A DNA stretch of 64,000 nt from Candidatus Liptonbacteria bacterium (GTDB taxonomy: Bacteria; Patescibacteriota; Minisyncoccia; UBA6257; 2-01-FULL-56-20), in contig JAHFLL010000001.1 of assembly GCA_023244895.1 (NCBI GenBank), positions 268,009 to 332,008 on the forward strand, given 5' to 3'. Of the stretch, positions 7,965 through 57,714 are shown in pieces. Every line of letters starts with the position of its first letter. Within the stretch, counting starts at the first letter, position 1. A program made the translations under genes and the position numbers. The notes under the pieces are model-generated. The model searched no databases, was not told where the DNA came from, and worked only from the letters and a program-made list of their open reading frames with translations.

Positions 7965-8500
7965 CAACTTGTCTAGTGAAGTCGGGTTCACTAGATATTA
8001 AACGAGAACAGACCGACACGCATCGGGCATGTGGGTCTGTTTCTTCTTGCTACTGCTCTTGCGTCAGAGTCCCAGGAGTCGTCGCACGACTCCGCGAGGA
8101 TCCCCGTCGCCTTTCTGAAAAAACTCGGTTGCCCGGACGGGGAGCTTGTCGTACTCCGCGTAAGACATCGAGCTTGTCATCAGCGTCGGTGTGTCGGGGC
8201 TCTCCGCTTGAACTACGGCGACCACCGTATCTCCGTAGGGTCCGGGCGGCATCCGGTAGTCCACGATTGCGAGCTTGAATGGCTGGCCCGCCGCTACTGC
8301 CTCACGGATCTTGGAGATGGCCTCCGTCGCCCCGCCGGCCGTGACGATCTCGATCTCCGCACCGATGGTCTCGAGAAGTGCCCTCATCCCCACGAGAGCG
8401 ATTGGCGTATCATCTACCACGAGAATGCGTCTTATCATGGTTCCTGCCCCCCCTCTCTCTTCTGGAGGCCATTATATTATCCATGTCTTTTAAGTCAATT
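7965..8500. other. GC-rich island A (about 65% GC), carries the orphan receiver gene
   Basis: Sharp compositional shift relative to flanks. Own SD and terminator (CAGACC...GGTCTG plus U-run). Confidence 0.5.
8064..8438 (-). CDS. Single-domain response regulator (CheY-like receiver), inside GC-rich island A
   Basis: Motifs LVVDD and AIVDYRMP. About 65% GC. SD-like GAGGGGGGG sits upstream of the ATG. Confidence 0.6.
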   Translation of the reverse strand: MIRRILVVDDTPIALVGMRALLETIGAEIEIVTAGGATEAISKIREAVAAGQPFKLAIVDYRMPPGPYGDTVVAVVQAESPDTPTLMTSSMSYAEYDKLPVRATEFFQKGDGDPRGVVRRLLGL

Positions 8501-8512
8501 ATAAAAAAGGAC

Positions 8513-8548
8513 TTGACATTATATTTACTACGCTATACTATAGTATAG
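8513..8548 (+). promoter_or_regulatory. Promoter plus operator module 1: TTGACA-17-TACTAT overlapping the 16 bp perfect palindrome CTATACTATAGTATAG
   Basis: TTGACA at 8513-8518, -10 at 8536-8541, palindrome at 8533-8548. The ATG at 8550 implies a leaderless mRNA. Confidence 0.6.
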
Positions 8549-8549
8549 T

Positions 8550-8900
8550 ATGCAAAATAAAAAAATGAACAAGAAAGAAAAGTGGCAGAACGAGGATAGT
8601 GAGGAGTTATTTAAAGCCGTGCTTGGTCTTAAAAATACGTCCGAAGCTAGGGCTTTTTTTAGAGATCTTTTAACCGAGAAGGAGATTTTGGAGTTCGGTC
8701 AGCGCTGGAAGGTGGCCAGGATGTTGTCCGAGAGTGTTCCTTATTCAGAAATAGGGCATAGAACCTGGATGAGTCCCAGAACCATAGCGCGTATTCAAAA
8801 ATGGCTTAAAAGCGGGAGGGGCGGTTACCGCTTAGCAATTCATCGGTTGGAGCAGAAAGCGGGTAAAAGGCCCGTTGCTGGCAAGAAAAGAAACAGATAG
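8550..8900 (+). CDS. YerC/YecD family TrpR-like DNA-binding protein
   Basis: Motifs FFRDLLTEKEILEFGQRWKVARML, PRTIARIQKWL and SGRGGYRL match the YerC/TrpR-like pattern. Confidence 0.75.
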   Translation: MQNKKMNKKEKWQNEDSEELFKAVLGLKNTSEARAFFRDLLTEKEILEFGQRWKVARMLSESVPYSEIGHRTWMSPRTIARIQKWLKSGRGGYRLAIHRLEQKAGKRPVAGKKRNR

Positions 8901-8963
8901 GCAAGGGGGTTGGGTAGAGGAATAAGTAAGCACCCCCCTTGCTTCCATTGAATATTTAAACCC

Positions 8964-8998
8964 TTGACTTTTTTATCCACCGCTATACTATAGTATAG
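8964..8998 (+). promoter_or_regulatory. Promoter plus operator module 2: TTGACT-16-TACTAT overlapping a second copy of the same 16 bp palindrome
   Basis: TTGACT at 8964-8969 and palindrome at 8983-8998. The shared 19-mer CGCTATACTATAGTATAGT matches module 1. Confidence 0.55.
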
Positions 8999-9004
8999 TG
9001 CACT

Positions 9005-9100
9005 ATCGGGGGTGACTACTGGGAGAGAGTAGAGAAGAGTAGAGGATAAGAGAGAAGAAGAGGAAGATAAGAAAGAAGAGAGAGGGTGGCGTGGGGTGGA
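9005..9100 (+). repeat. Polypurine (GA-rich) tract of about 95 nt
   Basis: Plus strand is almost entirely G/A (gagagagtagagaagagtagaggataagagagaagaagagg...). The two minus-strand ORFs across it are low-complexity artefacts. Confidence 0.7.
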
Positions 9101-9182
9101 ACACATTAGGTAGATGAGTGGGGTGAAATTGTAATGGGAGTACGAGCCGAGGGGCACTAGATTGGTTAAACAAGAGAACAAT

Positions 9183-9275
9183 ATGACTAAACAAAATATA
9201 AATTTTAATACGAGCGCCGGGCATCACAACCAACTCTTCCGAGAAGAGATTGGTTGTGGTTTTTATTTTTCTTAA
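9183..9275 (+). CDS. Candidate 30-aa leader peptide ORF running through a terminator hairpin
   Basis: ATG...TAA encodes MTKQNINFNTSAGHHNQLFREEIGCGFYFS. No SD, like host genes. Weak evidence. Confidence 0.2.
   Translation: MTKQNINFNTSAGHHNQLFREEIGCGFYFS
9225..9270 (+). terminator. Strong rho-independent terminator
   Basis: Hairpin CACAACCAACTCTTC / GAAGAGATTGGTTGTG followed by TTTTTATTTTT. Confidence 0.65.
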
Positions 9276-9310
9276 TAAGAAACAACACTCATTCTCCTCT
9301 CGGAAGTTCC

Positions 9311-9356
9311 GAGGGGTGTCGGCAAACCGAGCCCCTCACGAGAGGGGCTCTTTGAT
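9311..9356 (+). promoter_or_regulatory. Alternative-hairpin (attenuator-like) element upstream of the GCS2-like gene
   Basis: GAGGGGT (9311-9317), GCCCCTC (9331-9337) and GAGGGGC (9342-9348). The middle segment can pair with either flank. The perfect 9 bp stem GAGCCCCTC/GAGGGGCTC is followed by TTTG. Confidence 0.4.
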
Positions 9357-9382
9357 ATTGGCAGAACAAGAGGGAGGACGAT

Positions 9383-10396
9383 ATGAACGCTAAGGACCTG
9401 GTCCAGTACTTCACGCGCGGACTGAACGGGCTCTATGAGCTCGGAACAACAATCGGGATTGAGGTTGAGACCCAGTTCGTGGATCTGGGTGGTCGTGCCA
9501 TCCGGACGGAAATCGCCCAGCAGATCTTCCGGGGTTTCGTCGCTAGCGGTTGGAGGGTCGTGACGCGCAAGGGCGAGTTGCTGACGGAATTAATCTCTCC
9601 CGGGAATGATAGGTTGCTCTACGAGCTTGGCCGGCACAATTTGGAAATCAGTGCCGCGCCACGTCCCGCCGACGCGGTCGTCCCTGCCGTCCTGCGCTTA
9701 CTGGCGGAACTTTACGGCCAGGCTTGGAACTTGGGCGTTCGTCCGCTTCTTGCTCCGATCTTGGAGACGGAAGAGGACCTCCTGGTCGTGCCGGACGAAC
9801 GGGACGCGCAATGGGTAAGGACAGACGGGCGAAGCGCGCTCAATAATCTAACCAGATGCTCGGCGGTGCAGTTTACTATCGATGTGCCGCTCAAGGACGC
9901 GATACGCTGCGTCAATGTTCTGAACGAGATGAAATACTCCTTCCTGAACGAGTATCCCCAGGAGGAGTTGTGGCGGCGCTATATCAAGGAATCAGCCGCC
10001 ACCTATTCTCCCAGCCGCTACGGCGGTCCGGATCGCTTCGCCGATCTGGATGATTACTGCGCGAAACTGGCCGAGCATGGCGTGGTGCGAGACGGTAGGG
10101 TGGTGCCGTGCGAGTCGGCGGGGGAGGTGGATATCCCGCTCTTCCTGCGTTCAGTCTGGTGGTACTTCAGATTGAAGCGTTATGGTCCGAAGCTTTGCCT
10201 GGAAGTGCGCCCGTTCGCGCGGGGCAGGGATTCGAAAATCCAGGAGGATCTGGATCGGGTGCTGCAAATTCTGGGCATCTCCGGTCGGGAGCGCATGGAG
10301 CGAACGGTCGCCAGCCTTCGGGACAGTCTTGAGACACTGAAGTTCCAGGCGGTCCGCCGGCCCGTGTCTCTCGATTGGCCTTCGGGTGGTCACTAA
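9383..10396 (+). CDS. Carboxylate-amine ligase (GCS2/YbdK-like) family protein, GC-rich island B
   Basis: N-terminal TIGIEVETQFVD resembles the YbdK GIELEMQ motif. About 62% GC. Strong SD GAGGGAGGA 5 nt before the ATG. Confidence 0.4.
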   Translation: MNAKDLVQYFTRGLNGLYELGTTIGIEVETQFVDLGGRAIRTEIAQQIFRGFVASGWRVVTRKGELLTELISPGNDRLLYELGRHNLEISAAPRPADAVVPAVLRLLAELYGQAWNLGVRPLLAPILETEEDLLVVPDERDAQWVRTDGRSALNNLTRCSAVQFTIDVPLKDAIRCVNVLNEMKYSFLNEYPQEELWRRYIKESAATYSPSRYGGPDRFADLDDYCAKLAEHGVVRDGRVVPCESAGEVDIPLFLRSVWWYFRLKRYGPKLCLEVRPFARGRDSKIQEDLDRVLQILGISGRERMERTVASLRDSLETLKFQAVRRPVSLDWPSGGH

Positions 10397-10408
10397 ATCG
10401 CAAAGTAG

Positions 10409-10445
10409 TTGGGGCCGGACATCGTAGTCCGGCCCAATTTTTATA
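10409..10445 (+). terminator. Rho-independent terminator
   Basis: TTGGGGCCGGAC-ATCGTA-GTCCGGCCCAA followed by TTTTT. Confidence 0.65.
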
Positions 10446-10514
10446 TAGAAATAAATCAAAACCACCGTCCATCTGGGCGAAGTCCGTTACTAATGTGTCC
10501 TGTTCTGATCTCCG

Positions 10515-11237
10515 TTAAGATTGTTTCTTGAATGCTTCCACGATCTTGTCTAAATCTCCGTCCAAAATCTTCTCTATGTTATGAAACTTTTTACCGATGC
10601 GGTGGTCCGTAATCCTGTCTTCCGGGAAGTTGTAGGTACGAATCTTTTCGGAGCGGTCTGCACTACCAATTTGCTCGTTACGGTTCAGACCTGATTTTTT
10701 TGCCTCTTCTTCCATTTGAGCTTCGTGCAGCTTGGCCCGCAAAATTGTCATGGCGCGTTCGCGGTTGCCATGCTGGGAGCGTTCTACCCGGGAAGATATT
10801 ACGATGCCAGACGGTTTGTGAAGCACGCGTACCGCGCTTTCAATTTTATTCACATTCTGTCCGCCCGGCCCGCCTCCACGCGAGAAAGTTACTTCCAGAT
10901 CGCCTTCGTTTATTTGGACCTCTTTGGCTTCTACCTCCGGCATAATCGCGACGGATGCGGTAGAGGTGTGTACCCGGCCGGCTTTCTCGGTCTTAGGCAC
11001 TCTTTGTACGCGGTGCACGCCGGACTCCTGTTTTAGAGCGTCGTAGCAACCCTCGCCGGATATACCTGCCACAAAAGATTTATATCCGTATAAGGAAGTT
11101 TCGTTACTGTCTATTATGCTAAAGCCCCAGCCGCGCCTTTGGGCATACCTTTGATACATGCGCGCCAAGTCGCCCGCGAAGATGGCGGCTTCGTCTCCGC
11201 CCGCACCGGCTCTGATTTCTAAAATAATCTTATTCAT
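10515..11237 (-). CDS. prfA: Class I peptide chain release factor (RF1-like) lacking N-terminal domain 1
   Basis: GGQ motif SRGGGPGGQNVNK, RVQRVPKTEKAGRVHTS and an RF1-like C-terminus. The protein starts at RF1 domain 2 (ILEIRAGAGGDEA). An in-frame TAA sits 2 codons upstream of the ATG. Confidence 0.75.
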   Translation of the reverse strand: MNKIILEIRAGAGGDEAAIFAGDLARMYQRYAQRRGWGFSIIDSNETSLYGYKSFVAGISGEGCYDALKQESGVHRVQRVPKTEKAGRVHTSTASVAIMPEVEAKEVQINEGDLEVTFSRGGGPGGQNVNKIESAVRVLHKPSGIVISSRVERSQHGNRERAMTILRAKLHEAQMEEEAKKSGLNRNEQIGSADRSEKIRTYNFPEDRITDHRIGKKFHNIEKILDGDLDKIVEAFKKQS

Positions 11238-11246
11238 AGATGTTTA

Positions 11247-11276
11247 TGCAGAGATTCTAACAGAAGGAGTCGGGAG
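11247..11276 (-). promoter_or_regulatory. sigma70-like promoter TTGAAT-17-TAGAAT for the RF gene
   Basis: Minus-strand TTGAATctcccgactccttctgtTAGAAT, followed by a 16 nt leader before the ATG. Confidence 0.5.
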
Positions 11277-11285
11277 ATTCAATCT

Positions 11286-11314
11286 GATTGACTCGTTTTT
11301 GTCTCGGAGGCATA
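11286..11314 (+). promoter_or_regulatory. Divergent promoter TTGACT-17-CATACT for the island C small peptide gene
   Basis: ttgactcgtttttgtctcggaggcatact, back-to-back with the RF promoter. Confidence 0.45.
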
Positions 11315-11337
11315 CTCTTTGTCAGGAGGGCAGGGCG

Positions 11338-11484
11338 ATGATACCTCACCCGGCGGTAGTATTCGGGCTTGATGCTGTTACGGTGCGACAGTTGATCGTG
11401 GCCGGCATCGCGGTCTGCGTCGTGTCCGTCGCCCTCGGAGTCGCGGGCGCGGCCGGACTCGTCTACCTCGTTTCTTTGATCTAG
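11338..11484 (+). CDS. 48-aa hydrophobic (single-TM) peptide, GC-rich island C
   Basis: Peptide MIPHPAVVFGLDAVTVRQLIVAGIAVCVVSVALGVAGAAGLVYLVSLI. SD CAGGAGGG 8 nt upstream. Confidence 0.4.
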   Translation: MIPHPAVVFGLDAVTVRQLIVAGIAVCVVSVALGVAGAAGLVYLVSLI

Positions 11485-11866
11485 AGCTCGGACAGGCGCG
11501 CATGGGGTATCCTACGCGCCACGGGATGTGTGTCCCATCCGGGGCGGGGATGCTCTGGTCGTGCTGTTCAGTGTTGCCTCTGGGTAAGCGGCATGCTTTG
11601 CCGCTCGGTCTTTGGGCAACATTGCTCAGTTGCGGACGACTGGAGCATCTCCGTGTTTTCACAAGTCTTGATTCGGTGGGCGGTCTTGCTACTGGCAGGC
11701 ATCACCGCTTGAGGCGTGTGACCTCAGCCGAATCATGGGGCGCGGTCTGGTGGATTACCCAGGCTAGGCAGGCGGGGCAATGAAGCCAGCCGCGCCCTCT
11801 CATAGCGACCTCCGGAACCTACGGGAACCGGGGGTTTTGACTTATTTAGGGTCATATTCCAGCCAC

Positions 11867-11894
11867 TTGACATGGGCTGTGGATATGCTATAAT
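11867..11894 (+). promoter_or_regulatory. Consensus sigma70 promoter TTGACA-16-TATAAT
   Basis: ttgacatgggctgtggatatgcTATAAT, a perfect match to both hexamers. Confidence 0.6.
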
Positions 11895-11900
11895 GCATCT

Positions 11901-12500
11901 CAAGTGGGCGAGTGGGGATTCTTGGTCGGCGTCGGCTCTACGGAGCTACTGGCCACCTTCCCTCCCGAGCCTGCGGCGCTTTCGCCGCGTCGACTCGAGC
12001 GAGCGGGGGATTTCTTGGGCAGATTCGTCTGACCCACCCCCTCGTCCACAACCCTGCCGGCGGGTTCCACCGGTAATCGTTCTTGCGGGGCACAGCGCCG
12101 TCGGCACCGCGCACCGCCCCAAGACCATACGGGCCTGACCACATGGCCCACATTGGAAGGGAGGAAGAAAGTTCCGAAACCGAGACGTAGACGTTTGTGG
12201 AGGAGGGAAGACCAAATCTACAGATGGGTCTCGGGATGGCTGATCCCCATCCGGACGCGCTTCAAGGGATAAAATCCTAGGGCTAATAACCCGAAGCGTG
12301 AAAGTAGGATCGCAGGTAAGTAGGCGACCCAAAGCAGGGCGCCACCAACGGAGGTAACCACTCGGGAGTTCGCACGACCTTCGGGCCGGCGACGAGACGA
12401 CGGGGCACGCGCGACACGCATCCGCCCCAAACCCGAGAGAGCGATACTTCCAATCGGCGCCCTGCTATAGTCAACGGCCCCAGAGCATCAAAGCTCGGGG
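11901..12500 (+). ncRNA. Candidate GC-rich structured non-coding RNA of unknown family (about 600 nt)
   Basis: Lies downstream of the consensus promoter. No plausible ORF on either strand, only overlapping Arg/Pro-rich artefacts. The 5' GGGGAUUCUUGGUCGGCGUCGG loosely resembles a tmRNA 5' end, but no tag ORF or T-arm was found. Confidence 0.25.
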
Positions 12501-12581
12501 TCGTTTGCGTTTTGGGGATATGGTTCGCCCTCCCTTTCCTTTCCTGCTAGAATAACTTTTACTGGAAGATATAAATAAGCC

Positions 12582-13082: not shown

Positions 13083-13083
13083 G

Positions 13084-14079: not shown

Positions 14080-14086
14080 ACAAATC

Positions 14087-14111: not shown

Positions 14112-14119
14112 AGTAGAAG

Positions 14120-14374: not shown

Positions 14375-14474
14375 AACGGGAGGATTTTCGCTGATTTTTG
14401 GTGAAAAGTCAAATCGGGCTGGCTTAAATAAAACATCTCCGCGCCGGACCCCCTATGGGTGCGGCGCGGTTGGG

Positions 14475-14726
14475 CTACTGGATCGCGCTCAGGATGGCAT
14501 CCAGGTCGACTGGCCGCATAGAGAGCAGATCGTTGCACGTGGGGTGGGTCCGATGGGCGTTTGCCGCGCACTCAATGCGGACCCCGACCGCGCCCGCCAT
14601 AACCCGGGTGCCGTCCTTCCTGATGAGGTAGACGGCAGTTTCGTCGCCGTCTATCCCGACGACGAGAGCTGCGACTGGGCCACCAGCCACGGCCTCCACA
14701 TCCGTACGACTCACGGTCATGTCCAT
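14475..14726 (-). CDS. 83-aa hypothetical protein, GC-rich island D
   Basis: SD AGGAGG 6 nt upstream. Own promoter-like TTGATT-17-TAATCT. Terminator hairpin CCGCGCCG...CGGCGCGG plus U-run. Confidence 0.4.
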   Translation of the reverse strand: MDMTVSRTDVEAVAGGPVAALVVGIDGDETAVYLIRKDGTRVMAGAVGVRIECAANAHRTHPTCNDLLSMRPVDLDAILSAIQ

Positions 14727-14881
14727 CTGGGCCTCCTGCTGGCTACAGATTAGAATCTAGAGTTCTTTAAATCAATAAAAAATTGTCCCCAAAAGGTTTG
14801 TAAAAATTCAGAACGGCTCCGGGCGCTTGTGCGCGGAGCCGTCTTGGCTTACTGAGCCCGGTCACCCCCATCCAGGTTGTC

Positions 14882-15055
14882 CTATGGCCTTGCGAGCCTT
14901 AGGAACCCCCTGATCAGTTCCTGTACCACATCGTTGCAGAGGTACAGGAACAGGCCACCGATCAGGCAGATCACGAGAATGGCTGCCGCAACCGTGAGGT
15001 GCTTGGCGGTGCGGGTTATCGTTATTCTGTCTTCGTCCGACATGTGCACGGACAT
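14882..15055 (-). CDS. 57-aa single-TM small protein, GC-rich island D (below the 60 aa ORF cutoff)
   Basis: Peptide MSVHMSDEDRITITRTAKHLTVAAAILVICLIGGLFLYLCNDVVQELIRGFLRLARP. SD GGAGGG 4-5 nt upstream. Promoter-like TTGACG-17-CATAAT. Terminator hairpin plus U-run. Confidence 0.4.
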   Translation of the reverse strand: MSVHMSDEDRITITRTAKHLTVAAAILVICLIGGLFLYLCNDVVQELIRGFLRLARP

Positions 15056-15175: not shown

Positions 15176-15471
15176 ATACCTCGCGTCTGATATGGGCGGT
15201 CCCTGCTGAACCGACAGCTTTTTGATAATTGAGACCCGTCATCTTTCGACAATTCAAGATGATCCATCTTGAACGGAGTCGAAAGATAAAAACAATAAAT
15301 CAGAAATAAGAGTTTTCTAGTTGTCCCAATGACAAACCCGATGAATGTACTTTACAGACATCGGTTCCGATCACGGTTTTTCACGCAAGTGAACTTTGCG
15401 AATTTGCATGGTTACTCCATTTGCAAATTCGCGTAGTCATTTTATCTTCGGATAAAATGGGTCGCGATCTT

Positions 15472-17009
<1,538 letters not shown>

Positions 17010-17111
17010 GTCGAATATTTTTCTTTTGAAAAATATGGTGCGTAAGCATTTCAGTCATTTGGGCAGCTAGAAAACTCTGATTTAAAAAGGGACCGATTGG
17101 TCCGTGGAAAG

Positions 17112-17137
17112 TAGGCCTGGTCAAAGGCCTATTTTCT
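17112..17137 (+). terminator. Terminator after 16S
   Basis: TAGGCC-TGGTCAAA-GGCCTA followed by TTTTCT. Confidence 0.45.
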
Positions 17138-17156
17138 ATGCTACAATCAATAAACT

Positions 17157-17558
17157 ATGGAACCAGCCAAAGTGTTAATTATTGAAGACGACCACTTCTT
17201 ATCCTCTATTTTAAAGAGCAAATTAGAGAAGGAGGGGTTTGAGGTTCACCAGGCTTTTGATGGAGATGAGGGCTTGGCTATACTCCAGACTTTCAAGCCG
17301 AATCTGATTCTGCTGGATTTGATTATGCCGAAATTGTCCGGCTTTGATGTTTTGCAGCAAGTTTCGGTTGACCCGGAGCTTAGTCAGATACCAATAATGG
17401 TCGCGTCCAACTTAGGGCAGGACAGCGACATCCAGAAGGCAAAATCACTGGGCGCGATAGATTATTACGTGAAAGTGCGCACCTCTATTGACGAACTGGC
17501 TCAATTAGTGAAAAATGTGATAAACCAAAACGCAGCCAGTCAACCGAATCAAACTTAA
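17157..17558 (+). CDS. Single-domain response regulator (CheY-like receiver)
   Basis: Motifs KVLIIEDD, LLDLIMPKLSG and a conserved K. A -10 TACAAT sits 9 nt before the ATG. Confidence 0.75.
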   Translation: MEPAKVLIIEDDHFLSSILKSKLEKEGFEVHQAFDGDEGLAILQTFKPNLILLDLIMPKLSGFDVLQQVSVDPELSQIPIMVASNLGQDSDIQKAKSLGAIDYYVKVRTSIDELAQLVKNVINQNAASQPNQT

Positions 17559-17984: not shown

Positions 17985-18067
17985 GCGCGGGTGGCGAAAT
18001 GGCAGACGCACTACCTTGAGGTGGTAGCGCTCGTAAGGGCGTGGAGGTTCGAATCCTCTCCCGCGCA
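17985..18067 (+). tRNA. tRNA-Leu (anticodon GAG), type II with a long variable arm
   Basis: Acceptor GCGCGGG/CCCGCGC, anticodon loop TTGAGGT, T-arm GGAGGTTCGAATCCTCT. Confidence 0.85.
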
Positions 18068-18090
18068 CAATCTAATAAATAGTCACAACC

Positions 18091-21405: not shown

Positions 21406-21420
21406 GTATCTACGTTCGGT

Positions 21421-21468
21421 AAAAACGGGAACAGGACGCGCAACGGGCGCATCCTGTCTTGTTCTGTT
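21421..21468. terminator. Bidirectional terminator between SDR and island E
   Basis: ACAGGACGCGC-AACGG-GCGCATCCTGT with T/A runs on both sides. Confidence 0.5.
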
Positions 21469-21471
21469 GCC

Positions 21472-21846
21472 CTAGGTGGGCGTCTCCTCTGGGAAGAGGA
21501 GTGTGCGCGTAGTGCATTTGTAAGTGTCCGCGCATCGCATTCCAACCTTACCCGCTTCTTGGAGCTTGGCTTGGATCTGCTTGTCCACTACGGCCCTTTG
21601 TGTCGCGTCGAGATCCTGCCATCCCGAACTAGACAAGGCCGCAATCATCGCATCGGCCACGACTTCGCCCATCAGGTGGCAATCTGATGATCCGAGTCCG
21701 TGGACCAGTCTTGATACCACTCCGGTGCGATAGCTGAACCTCGCTCCGATTCTTGACTTGGCAACGCTGAGTGAGCCACCTGACATCTCGTACGCAGTCC
21801 GGGCAGTTTCCACGAGTTCTTGCATTATCGCAATCGGTTCGGTCAC
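21472..21846 (-). CDS. 124-aa hypothetical protein (GTG start), GC-rich island E
   Basis: High-GC ORF with SD-like GGAAGGAAGG upstream. No recognisable domain. Confidence 0.35.
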   Translation of the reverse strand: MTEPIAIMQELVETARTAYEMSGGSLSVAKSRIGARFSYRTGVVSRLVHGLGSSDCHLMGEVVADAMIAALSSSGWQDLDATQRAVVDKQIQAKLQEAGKVGMRCADTYKCTTRTLLFPEETPT

Positions 21847-21973: not shown

Positions 21974-22183
21974 ATGGCGAAACAGTGGAAACTGTCTGCG
22001 GATGGAATGCCGCAGAGGCCCGCTCGGCCCCGCAGACCGGATGCGCCCGAAGTCCCCGCGACCCTAGGTGGCAGCTACCTCGCTTCCACCGCAGGCCTCG
22101 GAACCACCAGTCCTCCGCCGAAGTTGCGAGGACGCGCACGATACGGTAAAGGCGCGTCATTCCGAGGGTGGGAGGCGCAGTAG
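21974..22183 (+). CDS. 69-aa Pro/Arg-rich small protein, GC-rich island E (tentative)
   Basis: SD AGAGGTG 5 nt before the ATG. Promoter-like TTGAAT-16-TAGATT at ~21929. Terminator at 22201-22233. Composition is low-complexity, so it may instead be an ncRNA. Confidence 0.25.
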   Translation: MAKQWKLSADGMPQRPARPRRPDAPEVPATLGGSYLASTAGLGTTSPPPKLRGRARYGKGASFRGWEAQ

Positions 22184-22200
22184 AACGGGAAACGAAGATT

Positions 22201-22233
22201 GGCGGCGTCGCGAGTGACGCCGCCACGCTTTTT
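22201..22233 (+). terminator. Rho-independent terminator
   Basis: GGCGGCGTCGCGAGTGACGCCGCC followed by ACGCTTTTT. Confidence 0.65.
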
Positions 22234-22249
22234 ATTATAGAATTCACTC

Positions 22250-22894
22250 ATGCGCTACATAGTTGGCTTAGATGAAGTGGGGCGAGGCCCGCTGGCCGGG
22301 CCGGTGGTGGTTGCGGCTGCCCTTATAATGCAAAATGTAAAAATTAAAGATAAAAAATTGGGGATACCGAGGGATTCCAAAAAGCTCACCCCAAAACAGA
22401 GAGAGGATTGGGTCAGATATTTTGAAAATAATCCCAAGATTTTTTACGCCGTCGCGCAGGTTTCGCCCAGAGTGATAGATAAAATAAATATCTCCGCCGC
22501 AGCAAACCTAGCCGCTTGGCGGGCCTACGGTAGGCTAATTAAAAAATCAAAAATCCATCCTTCGTCTAACTACGAACGGGCGAGCAAAATTAAAAATGTG
22601 GGAGTGTTCCTGGATGGGGGGTTGTATCTAAAGAAAAAAGGATTTTATCCTGGCGCGAAAACCATTATAAAAGGGGACCAGAAAATACCAGCGATTTCTA
22701 TCGCATCCATTATCGCCAAGGTCTATCGGGATGATTTAATGAACAAAATGGCAAAGAAGCATCCCGGGTATGGATTTGAAATTCATAAAGGCTATGGCAC
22801 CAAGGCTCATTATTCCGCTTTAAGAAAATTGGGTCCTTCCGAAATCCATCGGTTGACGTTTTTGGGAAAAAAACATAAAATCACAAAGTCGTAA
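22250..22894 (+). CDS. rnhB: Ribonuclease HII
   Basis: GLDEVGRGPLAGPVVVAA and DSKKL. Confidence 0.85.
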   Translation: MRYIVGLDEVGRGPLAGPVVVAAALIMQNVKIKDKKLGIPRDSKKLTPKQREDWVRYFENNPKIFYAVAQVSPRVIDKINISAAANLAAWRAYGRLIKKSKIHPSSNYERASKIKNVGVFLDGGLYLKKKGFYPGAKTIIKGDQKIPAISIASIIAKVYRDDLMNKMAKKHPGYGFEIHKGYGTKAHYSALRKLGPSEIHRLTFLGKKHKITKS

Positions 22895-28065: not shown

Positions 28066-28112
28066 GTAAAAACGATTTGGCTCCACCCCGGACGGGTGGA
28101 GCCTTGTCGATC
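28066..28112. terminator. Bidirectional terminator shared by efp and the island F gene
   Basis: GGCTCCACC-CCGGACG-GGTGGAGCC flanked by an A-run and a T-rich run. Confidence 0.6.
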
Positions 28113-28116
28113 TTAC

Positions 28117-29004
28117 TTAGGGGTCGGGTATATACGTCCCGCAGTTTGGACATTTGTACCCGTGCCCATTGCGGTACATGACCGCGTCGCAATCATCGCA
28201 CTTCCTATCTCCGTGCACGGGCTCTTTCTCTCCGTTTACGCCCGCGCAGAAACGAGCTTCGGGAGACAGGAATTCGATCGCCAGCCACCGGAAGACGTAG
28301 TCCACGATGGACTTCGCGAACCGAATCTTCGGATGTCTGGTCATCCCCGACGGTTCGAAACGCATGTGGCTGAACCTGTCTACCAGCGTCTCGAGAGGTA
28401 CGCCGTACTGCAGGGCAATTGTGATTGCACTGGCAAACGCGTCCGCGAAGCCCGAGATCATCGAGTCCCCGTTGGCCATCACGAGGAACAAGTCGGCGGG
28501 CTTGCCGTCTTCGTATCGCCCGACGGTTACGTAGCCCTGGTGGCCACCGATGTCGAACTTGTGGGAGAGGGCGCGTCTGTCTTCAGGTGGTCTGCGGCGC
28601 TCAACATCCATCCGTCTGGATGCCTTGGCGAGATCGCCAAACTTCAGATCCAGCCACCGGAAGATGTAGTCCGCGATGGATTTTGCGAATCCAATTCGCG
28701 GATGCTTGGTCATCCCGGATGGCTCGAAGCGCATGTGGCTGAACCTGTCTACCAGCGTCTCGAGAGGGACGCCGTACTGTAGGCAGTACGACACCGCCCG
28801 CGCGAATGCGTCCGCGAAGCCGGAGAGGGTTGACCCCTCCTTAGCCATCACGAGGAACAGCTCTCCGAGAGTGCCGTCCTCGTAGAAGCCTACCGTGATG
28901 TAGACTTTGTGCCCACCGATTTTAACTCGGTGCACGAGCGCGTTGCGCTCGTCCGGTAGCGTCCGCCGGAGGGGCGGGTTTACTAACGAGCTGCTAGCGC
29001 TCAT
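28117..29004 (-). CDS. Tandem-duplicated (~130 aa x2) domain protein resembling the class II ribonucleotide reductase C-terminal (TSCPD-like) domain, with C-terminal zinc ribbon. GC-rich island F.
   Basis: Two repeats share ...GGH.GY.TVG.YEDG...LFLVMA...SGFADAFA.A....LQYGVPLETLVDRFSHMRFEPSGMT.HP.I.FAKSI.DY.FRWL. The tail carries CDDCD...CPNCG. The antisense 241-aa ORF is rejected. Confidence 0.4.
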   Translation of the reverse strand: MSASSSLVNPPLRRTLPDERNALVHRVKIGGHKVYITVGFYEDGTLGELFLVMAKEGSTLSGFADAFARAVSYCLQYGVPLETLVDRFSHMRFEPSGMTKHPRIGFAKSIADYIFRWLDLKFGDLAKASRRMDVERRRPPEDRRALSHKFDIGGHQGYVTVGRYEDGKPADLFLVMANGDSMISGFADAFASAITIALQYGVPLETLVDRFSHMRFEPSGMTRHPKIRFAKSIVDYVFRWLAIEFLSPEARFCAGVNGEKEPVHGDRKCDDCDAVMYRNGHGYKCPNCGTYIPDP

Positions 29005-52545: not shown

Positions 52546-52605
52546 AGCTTCAACATAGCCAAATTGAGGGGGTTGGTCAAACGTCTATCTTGTGCAAAAA
52601 ACCTA

Positions 52606-53907
52606 TTATCGCCCAAGGGCAAAGAACATAGCGATGGCCGCCGCGCCCATGATTACAAATCCGCCCCAAACAAACAAGCTGGAGAGAAGGCCGCTTTTAT
52701 GTTCGCCCATTACTTTCTCGCTCCTTGCGATTTTTGCGATAAGAAAAATAAGCGGTACCGCGGCGACGCCGTTAAAAACCGCGGCGAACACGAGCGCTCG
52801 CATCGGGTCTATTCCCAAGAAGTTGATAGCCAGACCGATTATAGTGGCGATTGTTATTACTCCGTAGAATCCGTGCGCGCGCTTAAATTTTAGATTCAGG
52901 CCCTCCTTCCAATTGAGTGTTTCCGAAACAGCGTAAGACGCTGAAGCGGAAAGAACCGGTACGGCCAATAGTCCCAGGCCGATAATTCCGATTGCGAATA
53001 TGAGCTTTGCCAAAAAGCCGGCGAAGGGGAAGGTGTGCACCAGCGGTTCCAGCGCCCGAGCCGCGTCCGCGGCAGTAGTAATATTTGTTACCCCGTTAGA
53101 ATTTAAGACCGTAGCCGCAACGACGATAATGCTCCAAGTCGCGATTTCGGAAGAGAGCATTCCGATAAAATTATCCATTCTGAGGCGCTGCAAAAAGGAT
53201 TTAGTAATATGCGGTCCGTCTTTTCTCATAAGCCCCAGCCTTCTTTCTTCTTCGTTTTCTTCAGACGCTTCCCAGAAAAACATATAAGGAGAGATGGTGG
53301 TTCCGAAGACGCCGGTAATGATAAACAGAAAAGCAAAACTTAGTTCCACGTGCGGGACGAACGTAGCTTTGAGCAGTTCCATCCACGGCTCTTTCACTAA
53401 AAACAAGGTGATGGGATAAGCCAGAAGAGAGAGGGCGAGCCACTTTAGAATTTTGGAGTAAGTCTTGTAGGAGGTAAAAATTTCCAAGACCAAGATGACA
53501 ACCGTGAAAAAGAGCGTAAGAACAGCGAAGTTTATCGGTAAAACGAGATGTGCCGCCGCACCCATAGCTCCCAAGTCCGCTCCGATGTTGATAGTATTGG
53601 CTACTAAAACCAAGATGAGGGTCGCATAAAGAATCTTTTTGTTGTAGTGCTCTTTAATAGCTGCCGCCAAGCCCTTGCCGGTCACCGCGCCTATCCTGGC
53701 GCAGGCTTCCTGAATCGCGGTCATAAAGGGCAACAACAATAAAGCCGTCCAGAGTTGGCCATAGCCGAACTGGGCGCCGGTCTGGGAATAAGTGGCGATT
53801 CCGGAGGGGTCGTCGTCCGCCGCTCCGGTTACTATGCCCGGTCCCAGAGCGCGAAAAAACGACGCTACTTTTTTAAAAGGATGCAGCGCGCGTGTTTTCC
53901 AGGTCAT
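52606..53907 (-). CDS. mntH: NRAMP-family divalent metal transporter (MntH-like)
   Basis: GPGIVTGAADDDPSGI, GAQFGYGQLW...IGAVTGKGLA. Confidence 0.75.
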   Translation of the reverse strand: MTWKTRALHPFKKVASFFRALGPGIVTGAADDDPSGIATYSQTGAQFGYGQLWTALLLLPFMTAIQEACARIGAVTGKGLAAAIKEHYNKKILYATLILVLVANTINIGADLGAMGAAAHLVLPINFAVLTLFFTVVILVLEIFTSYKTYSKILKWLALSLLAYPITLFLVKEPWMELLKATFVPHVELSFAFLFIITGVFGTTISPYMFFWEASEENEEERRLGLMRKDGPHITKSFLQRLRMDNFIGMLSSEIATWSIIVVAATVLNSNGVTNITTAADAARALEPLVHTFPFAGFLAKLIFAIGIIGLGLLAVPVLSASASYAVSETLNWKEGLNLKFKRAHGFYGVITIATIIGLAINFLGIDPMRALVFAAVFNGVAAVPLIFLIAKIARSEKVMGEHKSGLLSSLFVWGGFVIMGAAAIAMFFALGR

Positions 53908-53911
53908 ATGT

Positions 53912-54649
53912 TTATTGCATCACGAAAGAAGCGCGTACTACCGAGGTTATCTGCTTCTCTATGGACGAGGTGTCGTATGAGCCATAGTCGGAAACGTCTG
54001 TGGAATTAACCTGGGTTATTTGGAACACGCCCTGGCTGGCGGATTTTATCTTACCAACCTTACTGCCGGAACTTTCCGCGATCTTGCTGGCGCGTACCTG
54101 GGCATCTTCCGTTGCCTTAGAAAGCATTTCCAGCTTAATATCCGCCAGTTTGCTGTAATAGTATTCCAGCGGGCGGGAAGCGAAAGTCACGCCCTGGTCT
54201 ATTAGTTCTCCGCTCTTTTGGGCTATGCGAGTTATCTTCTCCACATCACTCAGTTGAACCTGAATATTTTGGGTAAGATTATAACCGGTTATCTCGCCCG
54301 ACTTCCCGCCGTAGTTACTGCCGTAGTTGTAGTTAGTCTGCACATCTATCACGCCTACGGTAATATCTTTTTCTTCCACCCCGTTAGCTTTTAAAAACGC
54401 CATTACTTTTTCCAGGTCGCCCTTCATCAAGCGGTAAGAGTCGGATAATTTACTCGTGTCCGCCTGGCGGGAGATATAGCTGTTCCACTTTCCAACGTCG
54501 GAAGTAATAATTTTTTGAGAATAACCGGACACGGATATGACATTATCAAGCGAGCGCACCTGGTAGATGGCGTAGGCGACTATTATAGAAACTATCACCA
54601 AACACCCCCCGATTATTAGCCCGAAAACAGACAAACCTTTATTAGTCAT
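53912..54649 (-). CDS. SIMPL-domain (DUF541) protein, membrane-anchored
   Basis: N-terminal TM. C-terminal GVFQITQVNST is SIMPL-like. Confidence 0.6.
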   Translation of the reverse strand: MTNKGLSVFGLIIGGCLVIVSIIVAYAIYQVRSLDNVISVSGYSQKIITSDVGKWNSYISRQADTSKLSDSYRLMKGDLEKVMAFLKANGVEEKDITVGVIDVQTNYNYGSNYGGKSGEITGYNLTQNIQVQLSDVEKITRIAQKSGELIDQGVTFASRPLEYYYSKLADIKLEMLSKATEDAQVRASKIAESSGSKVGKIKSASQGVFQITQVNSTDVSDYGSYDTSSIEKQITSVVRASFVMQ

Positions 54650-54747
54650 GGTCTATATGAATTAATCTAACGACTTGTCTATTATAGCAAAAACAAGGAG
54701 AACTCTGCTATTGTGTCGCGCTACGGGGTTGGTGCTATAATTTAGCT

Positions 54748-55029
54748 ATGAATAAAAAAATAATTTTAGCCGTAGTCGCGGTTTTGGTTCTCTTGGGGGT
54801 TTGGTGGTGGTACAAGTCGAAACCGGGCGCAAGCTCGGACGAAAATAGCGCCATGGGTCCCGGCGGAGAGGGAGCGGCAATTCCAGTGGCAGATCAGTCT
54901 TTAGGTGCTTCAATCTATTCTCAGGTAGGAGCAACCGGCAACCCGGCCGAGAAGATGCCGGACACGAATCCTCTGGGCGACAAGTCCAATCCAATCAAGG
55001 GCGCGTACAACAATCCTTTTGGAGAATAA
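54748..55029 (+). CDS. Small secreted/membrane-anchored protein
   Basis: N-terminal TM anchor. A -10 TGCTATAAT with extended TG lies 10 nt upstream. Confidence 0.4.
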   Translation: MNKKIILAVVAVLVLLGVWWWYKSKPGASSDENSAMGPGGEGAAIPVADQSLGASIYSQVGATGNPAEKMPDTNPLGDKSNPIKGAYNNPFGE

Positions 55030-56869
55030 TATGAAAAAAATAATTAGTCTTACTCCGGTCTTGGTGCTGTCTTTAGGGTTAATGATCAGCTCCGCGATAG
55101 TCGCTTTTGCGCAGGTTTCTGTGACCGCGACTCCGGCAGGAGTAACAGTGGGGGCAGCTCCGGCGGGGGTAATTTTCCCGATAGCGGAACTTGGTAATTG
55201 TAAAAATCAGGGTGACTGCAAGTCTTATTGTAATAAGAAAGAAAATATTCAGGCCTGCGTCGGTTATGCCGAGAAAAACGGCATGATGTCCGCGCAAGAT
55301 GCCGCCCAGGCGCGCGAGTTCGCGGACGCGTTAGCAGGGGAAGCACCGGGTGGGTGTCAAGATAAAAAGACCTGCGAAAAGTATTGCGCGGATATTTCTC
55401 ATTTGGATGAGTGCGTGGCTTTCGCGGAAAAGCATAATTTTGTGGACAAGGGCGACTTGGCGGTAGCTAAAAATATCGCCAAAGCGTTAAAGAGCGGCAA
55501 GAAGCTGCCAGGCGGATGCAGCAGCCAGGCTTCTTGTAACAACTACTGCGAGAATACCGAGCACGCGGAAGAGTGTATCTCTTTCGCGGAGGGAACGGGA
55601 ATTCTCTCAGACGCGGATTTAGCAGAAGCTAAGAAGGTTCTGCCTCTCATAAAGGCGGGCAAGGCGCCGGGCGGGTGTAAAACTAAGACGGAATGTAAGG
55701 CCTACTGCGAAGCGGATGGTCATTTTGAGGAGTGTATCTCTTTCGCGGAGGAGGCTGGCTTTGTGGATAAAGAGGAAGCTGTGATGGCTCGTAAAACCGG
55801 AGGTAAGGGACCGGGTGGGTGCAAGTCTAAGGCTGCTTGCGAGGACTACTGCAATAAATCGGAAAATGCCGCCACCTGTTTTAATTTCGCCAAAGAGAAA
55901 GGACTTCTTTCCGAGAAAGAGGTAAAAGAAATAGAAGATGGTATGGGTCGTTTGCGCTCGGGATTAAGCCAGATGCCGCCCGAGATGGTGGATTGCTTGA
56001 AAGAAGGTTTGGGCGCGGATTCGGTTTCTAAAATTGAAGCCGGGACGTTAATTCCGGGTCCGAAAGTTGGCGAAATGGTTAAGGCTTGCGTTAGTAAATC
56101 TCTGCCCAAATTAAAAGAGAAGATGAATTCTGCCATGAAGATGGCGACGCCGGAAGTAAAGGCGTGTTTGGAGCAGGGCGGAATTAATGAGGCGGAGTTA
56201 GAAAAAATACAGAACGGCGAGGCGCCTAGCCCGAGCCTAGGAGACGTGATGAAGAAATGTTTCAACGTCTTGAAGAAAGAGGGGCTAGATAAAGCTCGGG
56301 CGGGTCTGGCTAAAATGCCGCCCCAGATGCGCCAGTGCGTGGAAGATAAACTGGGTGCGGATGTTTTACGTAAGATAGCGAATGGCGAAGATGTGGAGGC
56401 TGGCGCGGAAATGGGGGAGGCGTTTGAGTCTTGCGTGCAAAATGCGGCTGGAGCCGCCGGGGAACAGTTCAAGAACGCACAAATTCCAGCCGGGGCTAAA
56501 AAGTGCATTGAAGATAAGCTGGGCATGGATGTTCAGAGCGCGGTAAATGCCGGAAAGATAAGCGGACCGGAAGAGGTTCAAAAATTGATAATGGAGTGTA
56601 TGAAGGGGGCTATCCCGGGCGGAGCACCTAGTGGTGCGGGTGGTCCTCCGGATGGTACCCGAATGGGTCCTCCAGCAGGGACAGATATGGGTCCACCGCC
56701 CGGCATGGGTATGGGTGGTCCGGTTCCAGCTCCGGGAGGTCCTGGTGCGGGTGGTCCGCCTGCGGGAGGTGGCGGTCCGGACTGCTCTCAGTTTGCATCC
56801 GCTCCATCTTGCGACTATGTCCCAGCCGGTCAGCCCCAGGAGATGTGCAAGAAGTGCAGGGGACAATAA
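55019..56869 (+). CDS. Secreted modular Cys-rich repeat protein with Gly/Pro-rich C-terminal tail
   Basis: Signal peptide. Six ~45-aa modules (PGGC..K..C..YC......EC..FAE..G). Three or four second-type modules (MPP.M..C.E..LGAD). Poly-G/P tail ending in C-rich CSQFASAPSCD...CKKCRGQ. Confidence 0.5.
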   Translation: MENNMKKIISLTPVLVLSLGLMISSAIVAFAQVSVTATPAGVTVGAAPAGVIFPIAELGNCKNQGDCKSYCNKKENIQACVGYAEKNGMMSAQDAAQAREFADALAGEAPGGCQDKKTCEKYCADISHLDECVAFAEKHNFVDKGDLAVAKNIAKALKSGKKLPGGCSSQASCNNYCENTEHAEECISFAEGTGILSDADLAEAKKVLPLIKAGKAPGGCKTKTECKAYCEADGHFEECISFAEEAGFVDKEEAVMARKTGGKGPGGCKSKAACEDYCNKSENAATCFNFAKEKGLLSEKEVKEIEDGMGRLRSGLSQMPPEMVDCLKEGLGADSVSKIEAGTLIPGPKVGEMVKACVSKSLPKLKEKMNSAMKMATPEVKACLEQGGINEAELEKIQNGEAPSPSLGDVMKKCFNVLKKEGLDKARAGLAKMPPQMRQCVEDKLGADVLRKIANGEDVEAGAEMGEAFESCVQNAAGAAGEQFKNAQIPAGAKKCIEDKLGMDVQSAVNAGKISGPEEVQKLIMECMKGAIPGGAPSGAGGPPDGTRMGPPAGTDMGPPPGMGMGGPVPAPGGPGAGGPPAGGGGPDCSQFASAPSCDYVPAGQPQEMCKKCRGQ

Positions 56870-56957
56870 CTAGTAACCAGTAGTTAGTAGATAGAAGTTA
56901 GAAGTTAGAAGATAGAATGTAGAAGTTGGAATAAAGAGAGGGGACGGGAATGAGTAA

Positions 56958-56990
56958 TGGCCGAGCGCGATGTTTTGCGCTCGGCCATTG
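56958..56990. terminator. Bidirectional hairpin terminator
   Basis: GGCCGAGCGC-GATGTTTT-GCGCTCGGCC. Confidence 0.5.
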
Positions 56991-57012
56991 CCGTTCTCTT
57001 GCCGTCTTCCGT

Positions 57013-57516
57013 TTACCGCTGCTCGGCTGCGACAGGCGGCCAAGCGGGCGGGACGACCGGACGGACGGGCCGACCGGCTTCTTCCGCCAGGTAGTCCTTG
57101 AAGCTGATTCGACCGTCCTGAGCGGACGAGCGTCGCAGAGCAAAGTCGTACTCGCGCGCCCAGTCTACGACGGCGAAGAACTTGGCGGTGGCAGCCTTGA
57201 ATCTGGATTCGTAGGACCTGAGGTTGTCCTCCAGGGACTGGGTGTCCCAGATTTCCGACTCTGCCGCCGCGCGAAGCCGCTTCTGGAGGAGGCCGATGCC
57301 CTTACTCCAGGCCTCACACTCGCGTGCGAGCTTGACGAGTCTCGCGTCCATGTCCTCGTCCGAGAGGAGTTGGTGCACCACCGCCATGGTCTTCTTGATG
57401 AACCGACTACGCACCGCGCTGGCCGCAATGGACCAGGTTATGGCGCCGGTCAAGATGGAGAAAAAGACAAGGAGCGCCAGCTGAACCTCACGCGTGATGT
57501 CCATATCCAAGCTCAT
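57013..57516 (-). CDS. 167-aa membrane-anchored coiled-coil protein, GC-rich island G
   Basis: N-terminal TM, then charged helical region. SD CGGGGGT 5 nt upstream. About 62% GC. Confidence 0.4.
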   Translation of the reverse strand: MSLDMDITREVQLALLVFFSILTGAITWSIAASAVRSRFIKKTMAVVHQLLSDEDMDARLVKLARECEAWSKGIGLLQKRLRAAAESEIWDTQSLEDNLRSYESRFKAATAKFFAVVDWAREYDFALRRSSAQDGRISFKDYLAEEAGRPVRPVVPPAWPPVAAEQR

Positions 57517-57714
57517 ATGTACCCCCGAGACACTCTTTGCTTGATTGCCATCCGGAGATTTGCTCCAGAGAGGGACGATTTGCGCCCCTAAAGAGTCTGG
57601 CCAAAGAATATATGTTTATTGAAAAATGTCAATGGTAACTGAGTCAATAAAGACAGCAAGCAGATTATTAATAATTGATTATTAATTACTGTTATAATAA
57701 GATGGTTCCGCGAT

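Follow-up and report, generated by a model that had tools for sequence, protein, structure and literature searches.

Seven GC-rich segments share a common anatomy

We analyzed a 64-kb window (contig JAHFLL010000001.1) out of the ~840-kb genome of a groundwater Parcubacterium, a Kaiserbacteria-like member of the Patescibacteria/candidate phyla radiation (CPR), in which short GC-rich segments with Shine-Dalgarno (SD)-led small genes lie between SD-less core genes. A previous interpretation of the letters alone (hereafter, the sequence-only reading) had listed seven such segments together with their genes. A coarse GC profile and a two-state segmentation agreed that all seven are real, with 0.60 to 0.67 GC against a host background of 0.47 in the window, and the segmentation placed them at positions 8013-8470, 9296-10435, 11325-12534, 14439-14743, 21998-22322, 28079-28978, and 56605-57449 (islets I1 to I7). 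Two GC spikes were rejected as islands because they are ordinary Gly/Ala/Pro-rich parts of host proteins, i.e., an extra one at 53660-53853, which is the conserved N terminus of an NRAMP transporter, and that at 56605-56869, the Gly/Pro-rich tail of a host gene that lies outside I7.

Each unit combines a promoter and an SD-like motif with a small gene and a terminator hairpin, which led to its early description as self-contained. A promoter scan together with direct reading located AT-rich -35/-10 boxes of the host type at the start of the units, and RNA folding predicted hairpins of -21 to -43 kcal/mol flanking or ending every one of them; the GC-rich stretch is nearly coextensive with the transcription unit. 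The small open reading frames (ORFs) in the islands follow the order GC3 > GC1 > GC2 (GC content at the third, first, and second codon positions), which is the pattern of high-GC coding DNA, with GC3 values of 0.62 to 0.79 versus ~0.5 in the host. The exceptions are I5b and I3b, which lack codon periodicity or a convincing ORF, a correction to the earlier list.

As the sequence-only reading had proposed, the islands are set apart from the core genome both compositionally and translationally. Codon preferences differ markedly between islands and host, for instance, for CTC (0.41 versus 0.09) and GTC (0.37 versus 0.16). The GC-corrected 3-mer signature of the islands correlates with that of the host at an r value of 0.55 (null, 0.91+-0.03), and with that of genes occurring exclusively in the equivalent intergenic slots of relatives at an r value of 0.61; the latter genes correlate with the host at an r value of only 0.17. 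The signature is therefore shared by islands of the window and slot genes of relatives. The stated lack of an integrase was also confirmed, with no Pfam, PHROG, or PADLOC mobility match in the island ORFs. Searches for sequence or for boundary or flanking repeats common to the islands yielded nothing above chance-level matches and no att sites, and neither attC-like imperfect inverted repeats shared among the units nor an integrase domain were found. Among the islands, only I7 has a tRNA neighbor.

Such sharp compositional edges in a metagenome-derived genome could betray GC-rich foreign fragments mis-joined into a CPR contig, an artifact that had been named beforehand as one that would refute the sequence-only reading. 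The junctions of islands 1-4 were, however, reproduced at 99.99-100% identity in independent assemblies, namely, Logan per-run contigs (SRR14366791 and SRR14366796) and an ENA MEGAHIT assembly. Orthologous arrangements occur also in three other lineages from unrelated projects, and every boundary coincides with a promoter or a terminator. Chimerism or contamination thus has a negligible probability.

Gene content of the islets

I1 and I2 lie on either side of a host gene encoding a TrpR-like protein. I1 encodes a stand-alone CheY-like receiver of 124 aa (8064..8438, minus strand; GC 0.61, GC3 0.71), with GAGAGGGGGGG upstream and a terminator hairpin (8003..8049, minus strand; -21.6 kcal/mol) followed by a T-rich run, in a region that is 85% conserved in the sister genome GCA_964529845.1 (L041). 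The receiver label of the sequence-only reading was recovered at the threshold of Pfam Response_reg (30.5 bits versus a cutoff of 30.2), and the sequence shows the acidic pocket and the phospho-acceptor Asp of a receiver, with DD at residues 9-10, D59, the T/S region, and K108 all recognizable. The sister genome has an I1 ortholog at the same locus, with 83% aa identity and a ratio of nonsynonymous to synonymous divergence (dN/dS) of 0.27.

At its promoter, the TrpR-like gene (8550-8900, plus strand) bears CTATACTATAGTATAG, a palindrome of 16 nt (context, 8533..8998). Exact copies of this palindrome occur at 8533-8548 and 8983-8998, the only two in 64 kb, where 0 are expected; the first overlaps the -10 box of the TrpR-like promoter and the second overlaps another promoter that faces I2. 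This second promoter drives a ~100-nt nearly pure A/G leader (about 9005-9110) toward I2. The sister genome is devoid of a 325-nt stretch that includes the second promoter, and I2 directly follows TrpR there. In other, distant CPR genomes, I2 homologs likewise come right after a Trp_repressor gene, or else neighbor GATase/peptidase-C26, GCS2, and folate genes. Control of I2 by the host TrpR-like repressor at this predicted operator is the best explanation for the arrangement.

The I2 leader (9296..9382, plus strand) is predicted to fold into two GC-rich hairpins, after which comes GAGGGAGG (9370-9377) as the SD-like tract. It is 91% identical in the sister, i.e., more conserved than the coding regions, with GAGGGAGG intact and a different spacer. 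The gene (9383..10396, plus strand; GC 0.60, GC3 0.72) specifies a 337-aa protein related to glutamate-cysteine ligases and YbdK-like carboxylate-amine ligases, and ends in a terminator hairpin plus T-run (10412..10435, plus strand; -21.1 kcal/mol) that is conserved in the sister. Pfam support for GCS2 is weak at the sequence level (2/30 members, E about 0.004). The fold backs the GCS2-like label assigned from the letters: the AlphaFold2 (AF2) model has a predicted local distance difference test (pLDDT) score of 91, and Foldseek matched it to 2gwc (E=1e-11; template modeling [TM] score, 0.64) and also to 1r8g (YbdK). The structural model thus supports I2 as a predicted GCS2/glutamate-cysteine-ligase-like carboxylate-amine ligase. 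About 200 homologs exist in CPR genomes at 45-55% identity, and the dN/dS of I2 versus the sister is 0.15-0.16. Of 6 independent CPR contexts of the family, GC3 is elevated in 4, and nearly all, including those in distant SD-poor genomes, have an SD ahead of the gene. In the sister genome (L041:2271-3274), gene calling splits I2 into two ORFs (131 and 202 aa) with an overlap at 2666, an apparent frameshift. Both parts have dN/dS values of ~0.15, so that the break is probably a sequencing error, a programmed event, or a lesion that arose very recently.

I3 comprises two units. I3a (11338..11484, plus strand) encodes a predicted membrane peptide of 48 aa preceded by CAGGAGGG as SD and by a promoter-like site at 11288-11316; its GC1/2/3 values are 0.71/0.41/0.73, and it is also called as a gene in independent assemblies. 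I3b is a GC-rich transcript of ~615 nt (11867..12515, plus strand), whose sigma70 promoter (11867-11894) matches the consensus at 12/12 positions and has a TG extension. The ~1-kb I3b region (about 11500-12540) shows no codon periodicity and no convincing ORF. Folding of the plus strand yields a minimum free energy (MFE) z score of -5.45, against -3.69 for the minus strand. The transcript holds the anti-SD-like CCUUCCCUCCC along with the SD-like tracts GGAAGGGAGG, GGAAGGGAGGAAG, and GGAGGAGGGAAG; the CCUCCC tract is internally paired in the predicted fold. No Rfam family was matched by I3b or the other islands at gathering thresholds, nor in a permissive scan of island 3, and tblastn against the window revealed no decayed remnants of the slot proteins of relatives in I3b or I5b. 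I3b is a candidate structured noncoding RNA (ncRNA) or decayed gene.

Two units on the minus strand make up I4. I4a (14475-14726; unit, 14439..14726) is an 83-aa orphan gene with CAGGAGG as SD, a GC3 of 0.77, and a terminator hairpin at 14439-14469 (-26.6 kcal/mol). I4b (14882-15055; unit, 14810..15055) encodes a membrane peptide of 57 aa, has again CAGGAGGG as SD and a GC3 of 0.76, and terminates at a hairpin of -29 kcal/mol (14810-14844).

In I5, I5a (21472-21846, minus strand; unit with terminator, 21418..21846) encodes an all-helical orphan of 124 aa from a GTG start with GGAAGGAAGG upstream. Its model is a confidently predicted helical bundle (pLDDT 80) for which structure search returned no significant PDB match, and its dN/dS ranges from 0.13 to 0.28. 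Only two homologs were detected, both within the genus and at the same SDR/rnhB slot. I5b is a GC-rich ORF of 69 codons with a terminator hairpin (21974-22183, plus strand; unit, 21974..22231). Its GC1/2/3 values of 0.66/0.67/0.66 denote no codon periodicity, and it does not resemble the other genes found in this part of the slot in the relatives L051 and L054; its coding status is doubtful.

I6 (28117-29004, minus strand; unit, 28079..29004), located between efp and mnmA and terminated by a hairpin at 28079-28103, encodes a 295-aa protein with tandem TSCPD domains and a Zn-ribbon. The tandem TSCPD assignment made earlier is corroborated by two Pfam TSCPD matches (E=1e-27). I6 also scores 320 bits against NCBIfam PRK06556 (class II ribonucleotide reductase [RNR]; model positions 740-859), and residues 266-294 give weak Zn-ribbon matches. 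By these matches, I6 is a tandem duplication of the C-terminal part of class II RNR (NrdJ C terminus), which is not an RNR since it lacks the catalytic domain. The sister genome has an ortholog in the same efp/mnmA slot (82% aa identity, GC3 0.77, dN/dS 0.21). The TSCPD repeats are 78-88% nucleotide-identical in parts; the internal duplication is already present in the sister and hence older than the split.

I7 (57013-57516, minus strand; unit, 56946..57516) is a 167-aa orphan with an N-terminal hydrophobic segment. Its GC1/2/3 values of 0.62/0.46/0.79 favor the minus frame over the plus-strand ORF 56950-57591. The hairpin at 56946-56998 (minus strand; -42.6 kcal/mol) is shared with the upstream host gene, and tRNA-Gln lies at 57715. 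I7 has no homolog among 1.84 billion (1.84e9) representatives, and I3a, I4a, I4b, I5a, I5b, and I7 have no NCBIfam or Pfam match.

The window also holds three tRNAs and a class A RNase P RNA (3727-4082, minus strand), whose score of 103 bits barely exceeds the gathering threshold of 100, indicating a very divergent RNase P. Between I2 and I3, a release-factor gene with PCRF and RF-1 domains (10515-11237, minus strand) encodes only 240 aa, which is short for RF1/RF2.

Islet genes are SD-led in a genome whose 16S rRNA tail lacks the anti-SD

The single 16S rRNA gene of the window (15470..17009, plus strand; Rfam SSU alignment, model positions 1-1533) ends in GGACCAAUUAAAUU (16996-17009). Aligned to the consensus GGAUCACCUCCUUU, this tail has AUUAA in place of CCUCC, so that the loss of the anti-SD posited by the sequence-only reading holds. 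No CCUCC was found anywhere in this one 16S gene, and no displaced canonical tail either. A more distant Kaiserbacteria relative, L008, likewise has no CCUCC and reads GGAUUCAUUCCAAC (L008:3307-3360). Both tails agree with the published partial loss of the anti-SD in Parcubacteria, where the motif is absent from about half of the lineage (Tsurumaki et al. 2022; PMC9297842). A new host SD matched to the altered tail was considered and rejected for want of enrichment (-1.29 versus -1.17+-0.16 in shuffled sequences).

Regions upstream of core genes are A/T-rich, and their ATG often comes only a few bases after a TATAAT-like box. In many core genes, e.g., those at 2342, 30325, 36213, 46082, 54748, and 62065, the box ends ~5-9 nt before the ATG, a proximity that suggests leaderless mRNAs for many core genes. 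ATAAA/AATAA occurs within 20 nt upstream of 19/60 core genes versus 7 expected, and TAAGC is enriched too.

Islet genes behave differently. GGAGG was found within 20 nt (<=20 nt) upstream of 4/9 island genes and 0/60 host genes, and any SD 4-mer preceded 8/9 and 6/60 of them, respectively; the mean duplex free energy with the canonical anti-SD ACCUCCUUU is -9.64 kcal/mol for islands versus -1.05 kcal/mol for the host. The early view of these SDs as out of place, given a host without the anti-SD, is thus substantiated, with SD motifs 5-12 nt before the start codon and no complementary CCUCC in the 16S of the window. When the window and two related lineages were pooled, 23/25 slot genes but only 6/83 core genes had an SD 4-mer (Fisher p=7e-16, orthologs counted individually), and GC3 averaged 0.70 in slot genes (n=25) versus 0.53 in core genes (n=83; p=1e-13). 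Pooled slot genes contain 19 SD 5-mers versus 8.1+-2.1 in composition-preserving shuffles, which argues that the SD excess is not due to upstream base composition.

The SD-like core is kept in 8/8 ortholog sets, even with the rest of the untranslated region (UTR) unalignable. A ribosome without the anti-SD means that slot mRNAs cannot use SD:anti-SD pairing. The fold of the start window is weaker than that of internal windows (-5.6 versus -10.3 kcal/mol) in 20/20 slot genes, and core genes behave likewise; these open start regions in both gene classes are consistent with accessibility-driven initiation. What stands out is that the SD-like motif is conserved across lineages that presumably lack the anti-SD.

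It is conceivable, although unlikely, that the GGAGG-type tract of anti-SD-less Parcubacteria is a selected functional signal read by a factor other than the 16S tail, which would provide GC-rich accessory genes with a second initiation or regulatory channel. Such a factor could be a protein that binds RNA, a CCUCC-carrying RNA that acts in trans (e.g., I3b), or a minor rRNA variant, and core genes would be leaderless or A/U-led. As a rival explanation, a dedicated reader of this kind that sets up a separate channel for accessory genes (again a CCUCC trans-RNA such as I3b with its CCUUCCCUCCC, a second rRNA variant, or an RNA-binding protein; in the extreme version, the ribosomes of a partner cell would express the genes) is quite improbable. 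It would account for the invariable retention of the SD-like core and for an enrichment beyond base composition, it could draw on the perfect promoter, strong fold, and both kinds of tract in I3b, and it has a precedent in Bacteroidia, where an SD on a select gene can be regulatory in an otherwise SD-blind organism (PMC9976891). Nonetheless, the CCUCCC stretch of I3b is engaged in internal pairing in the predicted fold, the view of 16S genes covers 64 kb of an 840-kb genome, and an accessible start is the simpler explanation.

Islets are conserved at their loci while slot contents turn over

The sister genome is collinear with positions 6742-11091 of the window at 80-86% nucleotide identity, and I1 and I2 are in place there with equal GC contrast and the same GAGGGAGG. 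In total, five islands (I1, I2, I4a, I5a, and I6) are orthologous in lineages that are 7-20% diverged at the nucleotide level. The dN/dS values of island genes (0.13-0.34) indicate purifying selection, and their synonymous divergence (dS; 0.03-0.83) matches or falls below that of flanking core genes (0.28-1.66). Changes at third positions are symmetric, and GC3 stays within 0.65-0.77 in both lineages.

Besides this conservation, the comparison with relatives revealed turnover of slot content at efp/mnmA, SDR/rnhB, and SMC/rpsP (window versus L045/L054 versus L051). The efp/mnmA slot harbors I6 in the window, I6 and x122 in the sister, and s116a and s163 in L051; the SDR/rnhB slot contains I5a and I5b, or I5a, s111, and s116b, or an I5a homolog and s124. 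Two relatives have s54 between SMC and rpsP, a gene that the window lacks. The x122/s116a cassette is 91% identical over promoter and leader and 84% identical over terminator and mnmA promoter; the ORFs in between share 37% aa identity and no detectable nucleotide similarity. Every one of the slot genes of relatives is GC-rich, and nearly all are SD-led. I5a of the window is 90% identical to its L051 counterpart and 50% identical to that of the sister, with core genes roughly equidistant (identities only, for which synonymous-site constraint is an alternative), and I4a is 98.4% identical in L050, a roughly 93%-identical relative in which ddl is 90.5% identical. These identities are suggestive of an allele history incongruent with that of the core.

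In L051, a ~2.8-kb insertion (L051:13799-16436) stretches from a DUF4153 gene to rplS, where the window has only tRNA-Leu (17985-18068). It contains two genes of host composition and the GC-rich, SD-led, small basic paralogs s74, s85, and s88.

The sequence-only reading had offered small GC-rich cassettes that form a family as an alternative, which agrees with this turnover in a loose sense. It fails in the strict one, since the absence of shared boundary repeats and shared sequence argues against a repeat-defined cassette family. A Ddl-anchored scan placed the window among Parcubacteria/Paceibacteria, with Kaiserbacteria-like relatives at <=61% identity. All relatives that Ddl retrieved from genomes and metagenomes were distant (<=62% identity) and without conserved synteny, and they are unusable for slot comparison. 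In a set of 55 Parcubacteria loci at greater distance, strong SDs (7%) and GC-elevated ORFs (3.4%) are rare and their association is modest to weak, and thus the clean two-class split seems specific to the genus. L023, a more distant Parcubacteria genome with a background GC of 0.51, encodes an RTX-like GGxGxD repeat protein with a GC3 of 0.90 and a GGAGG SD (16400-17167, minus strand) and a 352-aa gene with a GC3 of 0.82 (L023:13219-14277, plus strand), so similar islands may crop up sporadically elsewhere in the clade.

Origin of the islets

The sequence-only reading had favored a recent horizontal import from an SD-using donor of high GC, for which an actinobacterial host was one candidate if the organism is an epibiont; the SDs would then be nonfunctional remnants. 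The strong contrast in GC3 and codon usage with the core, the canonical SDs in an anti-SD-less genome, and lineage-specific slot genes such as x122 and s54 are what such an import would leave behind, as is the kinship of I6, which matches the PRK06556-type class II RNR model best and has its nearest full-length relative on a 63% GC contig. We nevertheless judge recent import to be very improbable. I1, I2, I4a, I5a, and I6 reside at the same loci in relatives, the very finding that had been said in advance to contradict it, and they do so with dS comparable to or below that of core genes. Moreover, island genes are under purifying selection, their SD motifs are conserved rather than decaying, and I2 is predicted to be regulated by a host operator.

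The donor searches covered I2, I5a, I6, and I7. The nearest homologs of I6 are class II RNR C termini, those of I2 lie in other CPR genomes, and I5a and I7 have none outside the genus. A well-sampled donor such as Actinobacteria should have given matches for I7 and I5a, and the actinobacterial or epibiont-host source is hence not supported. PHROGs and PADLOC scans of the islands for a phage or defense signal gave only generic receiver and RNR matches, and scans of viral contigs with I5a and I7 returned no relatives. Origins thus appear heterogeneous and mostly not actinobacterial, with I6 as the only island for which the homologs point to a demonstrable outside origin.

With moderate confidence, we interpret the segments as small flexible genomic islets, i.e., an old, selectively kept pool of one- or two-gene units shared by the genus. 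Each islet is an accessory unit with one or two genes that occupies a fixed position between core genes, and is built as an autonomous expression module of a host-type sigma70 promoter, a short GC-rich leader with an SD-like tract at its end, a small ORF, and a hairpin terminator. The units would be drawn from a gene pool common to the genus, with some of them orthologous (I1, I2, I6, I5a, and I4a) and others present, absent, or swapped for unrelated GC-rich, SD-led genes in the same slot, most likely by recombination through the conserved flanks. The proteins are functional and maintained by purifying selection. A GC3 of about 0.7 and distinct codon preferences would mark an origin or an evolutionary regime separate from that of the core, with a composition that is old and stably maintained rather than the fading trace of a recent import. 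Initiation would depend on an accessible start region, and the purine-rich tract would either keep the start open in a structured GC-rich mRNA or serve some further factor.

Several points weigh against this interpretation. The comparison rests on fragments of two or three relatives, the pooled SD test treats orthologs as if they were independent data points, and the anti-SD status of the pooled relatives is extrapolated from the window and the more distant L008. The lower dS of islands may reflect synonymous-site constraint and not later exchange. The match of GC-rich stretches to transcription units with AT-rich, host-like promoters suggests constraint at the mRNA level and not arbitrary insertion edges. 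I2 is a native CPR family whose GC-elevated, SD-led homologs fit gene-specific selection at least as well as transfer. Lastly, no source of the GC-rich pool was found: I7 and I5a have no outside homologs, and the islands gave no phage or defense signal.

A serious rival, which we rate as unlikely, is in situ divergence of native genes through selection for GC-rich structured mRNAs with a purine-rich tract or through a local GC-biased process. Composition and SD-like motif would then characterize a class of genes (those that are leadered, accessory, or regulated) and say nothing about origin. The CPR-wide I2 family, with its retained TrpR partner and recurrent GC3 elevation and SD, speaks for it, as do the stationary GC3, a dS below that of core genes, an SD-like core that outlasts alignable UTRs, the coincidence of GC-rich stretch and host-type transcription unit, and orphans without donor homologs. 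Conversely, I6 derives from a class II RNR C terminus, with its best full-length relative on a 63% GC contig, and presence/absence and replacement by unrelated genes in the slots require gene gain and not compositional drift alone. The GC-corrected oligonucleotide signature departs from that of the host by more than a shift in GC, no known mechanism lifts the GC3 of single genes by ~0.2 with edges sharp to tens of bases, and the association between GC and SD is weak across the 55 distant loci.

Relation to known systems

Islands acquired by horizontal gene transfer (HGT) in Patescibacteria and anti-SD loss in Parcubacteria are each already documented; we found no published description of their intersection in a clean two-class genome in the literature searched. 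Core genes of the window have a GC3 of about 0.5, no SD, and often a putatively leaderless mRNA; in accessory genes, GC3 is near 0.7 and nearly every start follows a conserved SD-like tract with which the 16S tail cannot pair. Should this tract be functional, it offers a natural experiment on the role of SD-like sequences where SD:anti-SD pairing is missing; should it be idle, one has to explain why it has outlasted substantial divergence. In practice, GC3 combined with SD offers a sequence-only marker for the flexible gene pool of uncultured host-dependent bacteria, which is the likeliest place for partner-interaction genes.

The islets resemble flexible genomic islands or islets and the HGT islands of Patescibacteria, which account for up to 13% of genomes and stem mostly from transfers within the phylum, in their deviant composition, fixed sites between core genes, contents that differ between relatives at the same locus, many hypothetical genes, and exchange that appears to remain largely within the lineage (PMC12455944). 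They differ in being tiny (one or two genes, 0.3-1.3 kb), devoid of mobility genes and flanking repeats, and associated with a tRNA in one case only. They are further distinguished by being GC-richer than the host and by bearing an SD-like motif on every unit in a lineage without the anti-SD. Acquired genes are more often AT-richer than their host. Integron gene cassettes are likewise small, mostly single-gene units of unknown function with contents that vary between relatives; the islets have no integrase, attC-like repeats, or array, and instead carry their own promoters and terminators at dispersed sites.

With anti-SD-less Parcubacteria (PMC9297842), the genome shares a 16S tail without CCUCC and SD-less core genes; a residual class of SD-led genes or a link between SD and composition does not seem to be described in that report. 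The closest parallel in SD usage is found in Bacteroidia (PMC7797042, PMC9976891, PMC13000453), which also have nearly SD-free genomes in which a few genes keep a strong conserved SD-like element, as exemplified by the SD retained on rpsU for autoregulation. Retention of a strong SD on few genes in an SD-free genome implies a function other than general initiation. In Bacteroidia, however, the anti-SD is present but sequestered and becomes usable without bS21, whereas here its sequence has been replaced, and the SD-led genes of this Parcubacterium are accessory, GC-rich, and numerous instead of a single ribosomal protein gene.

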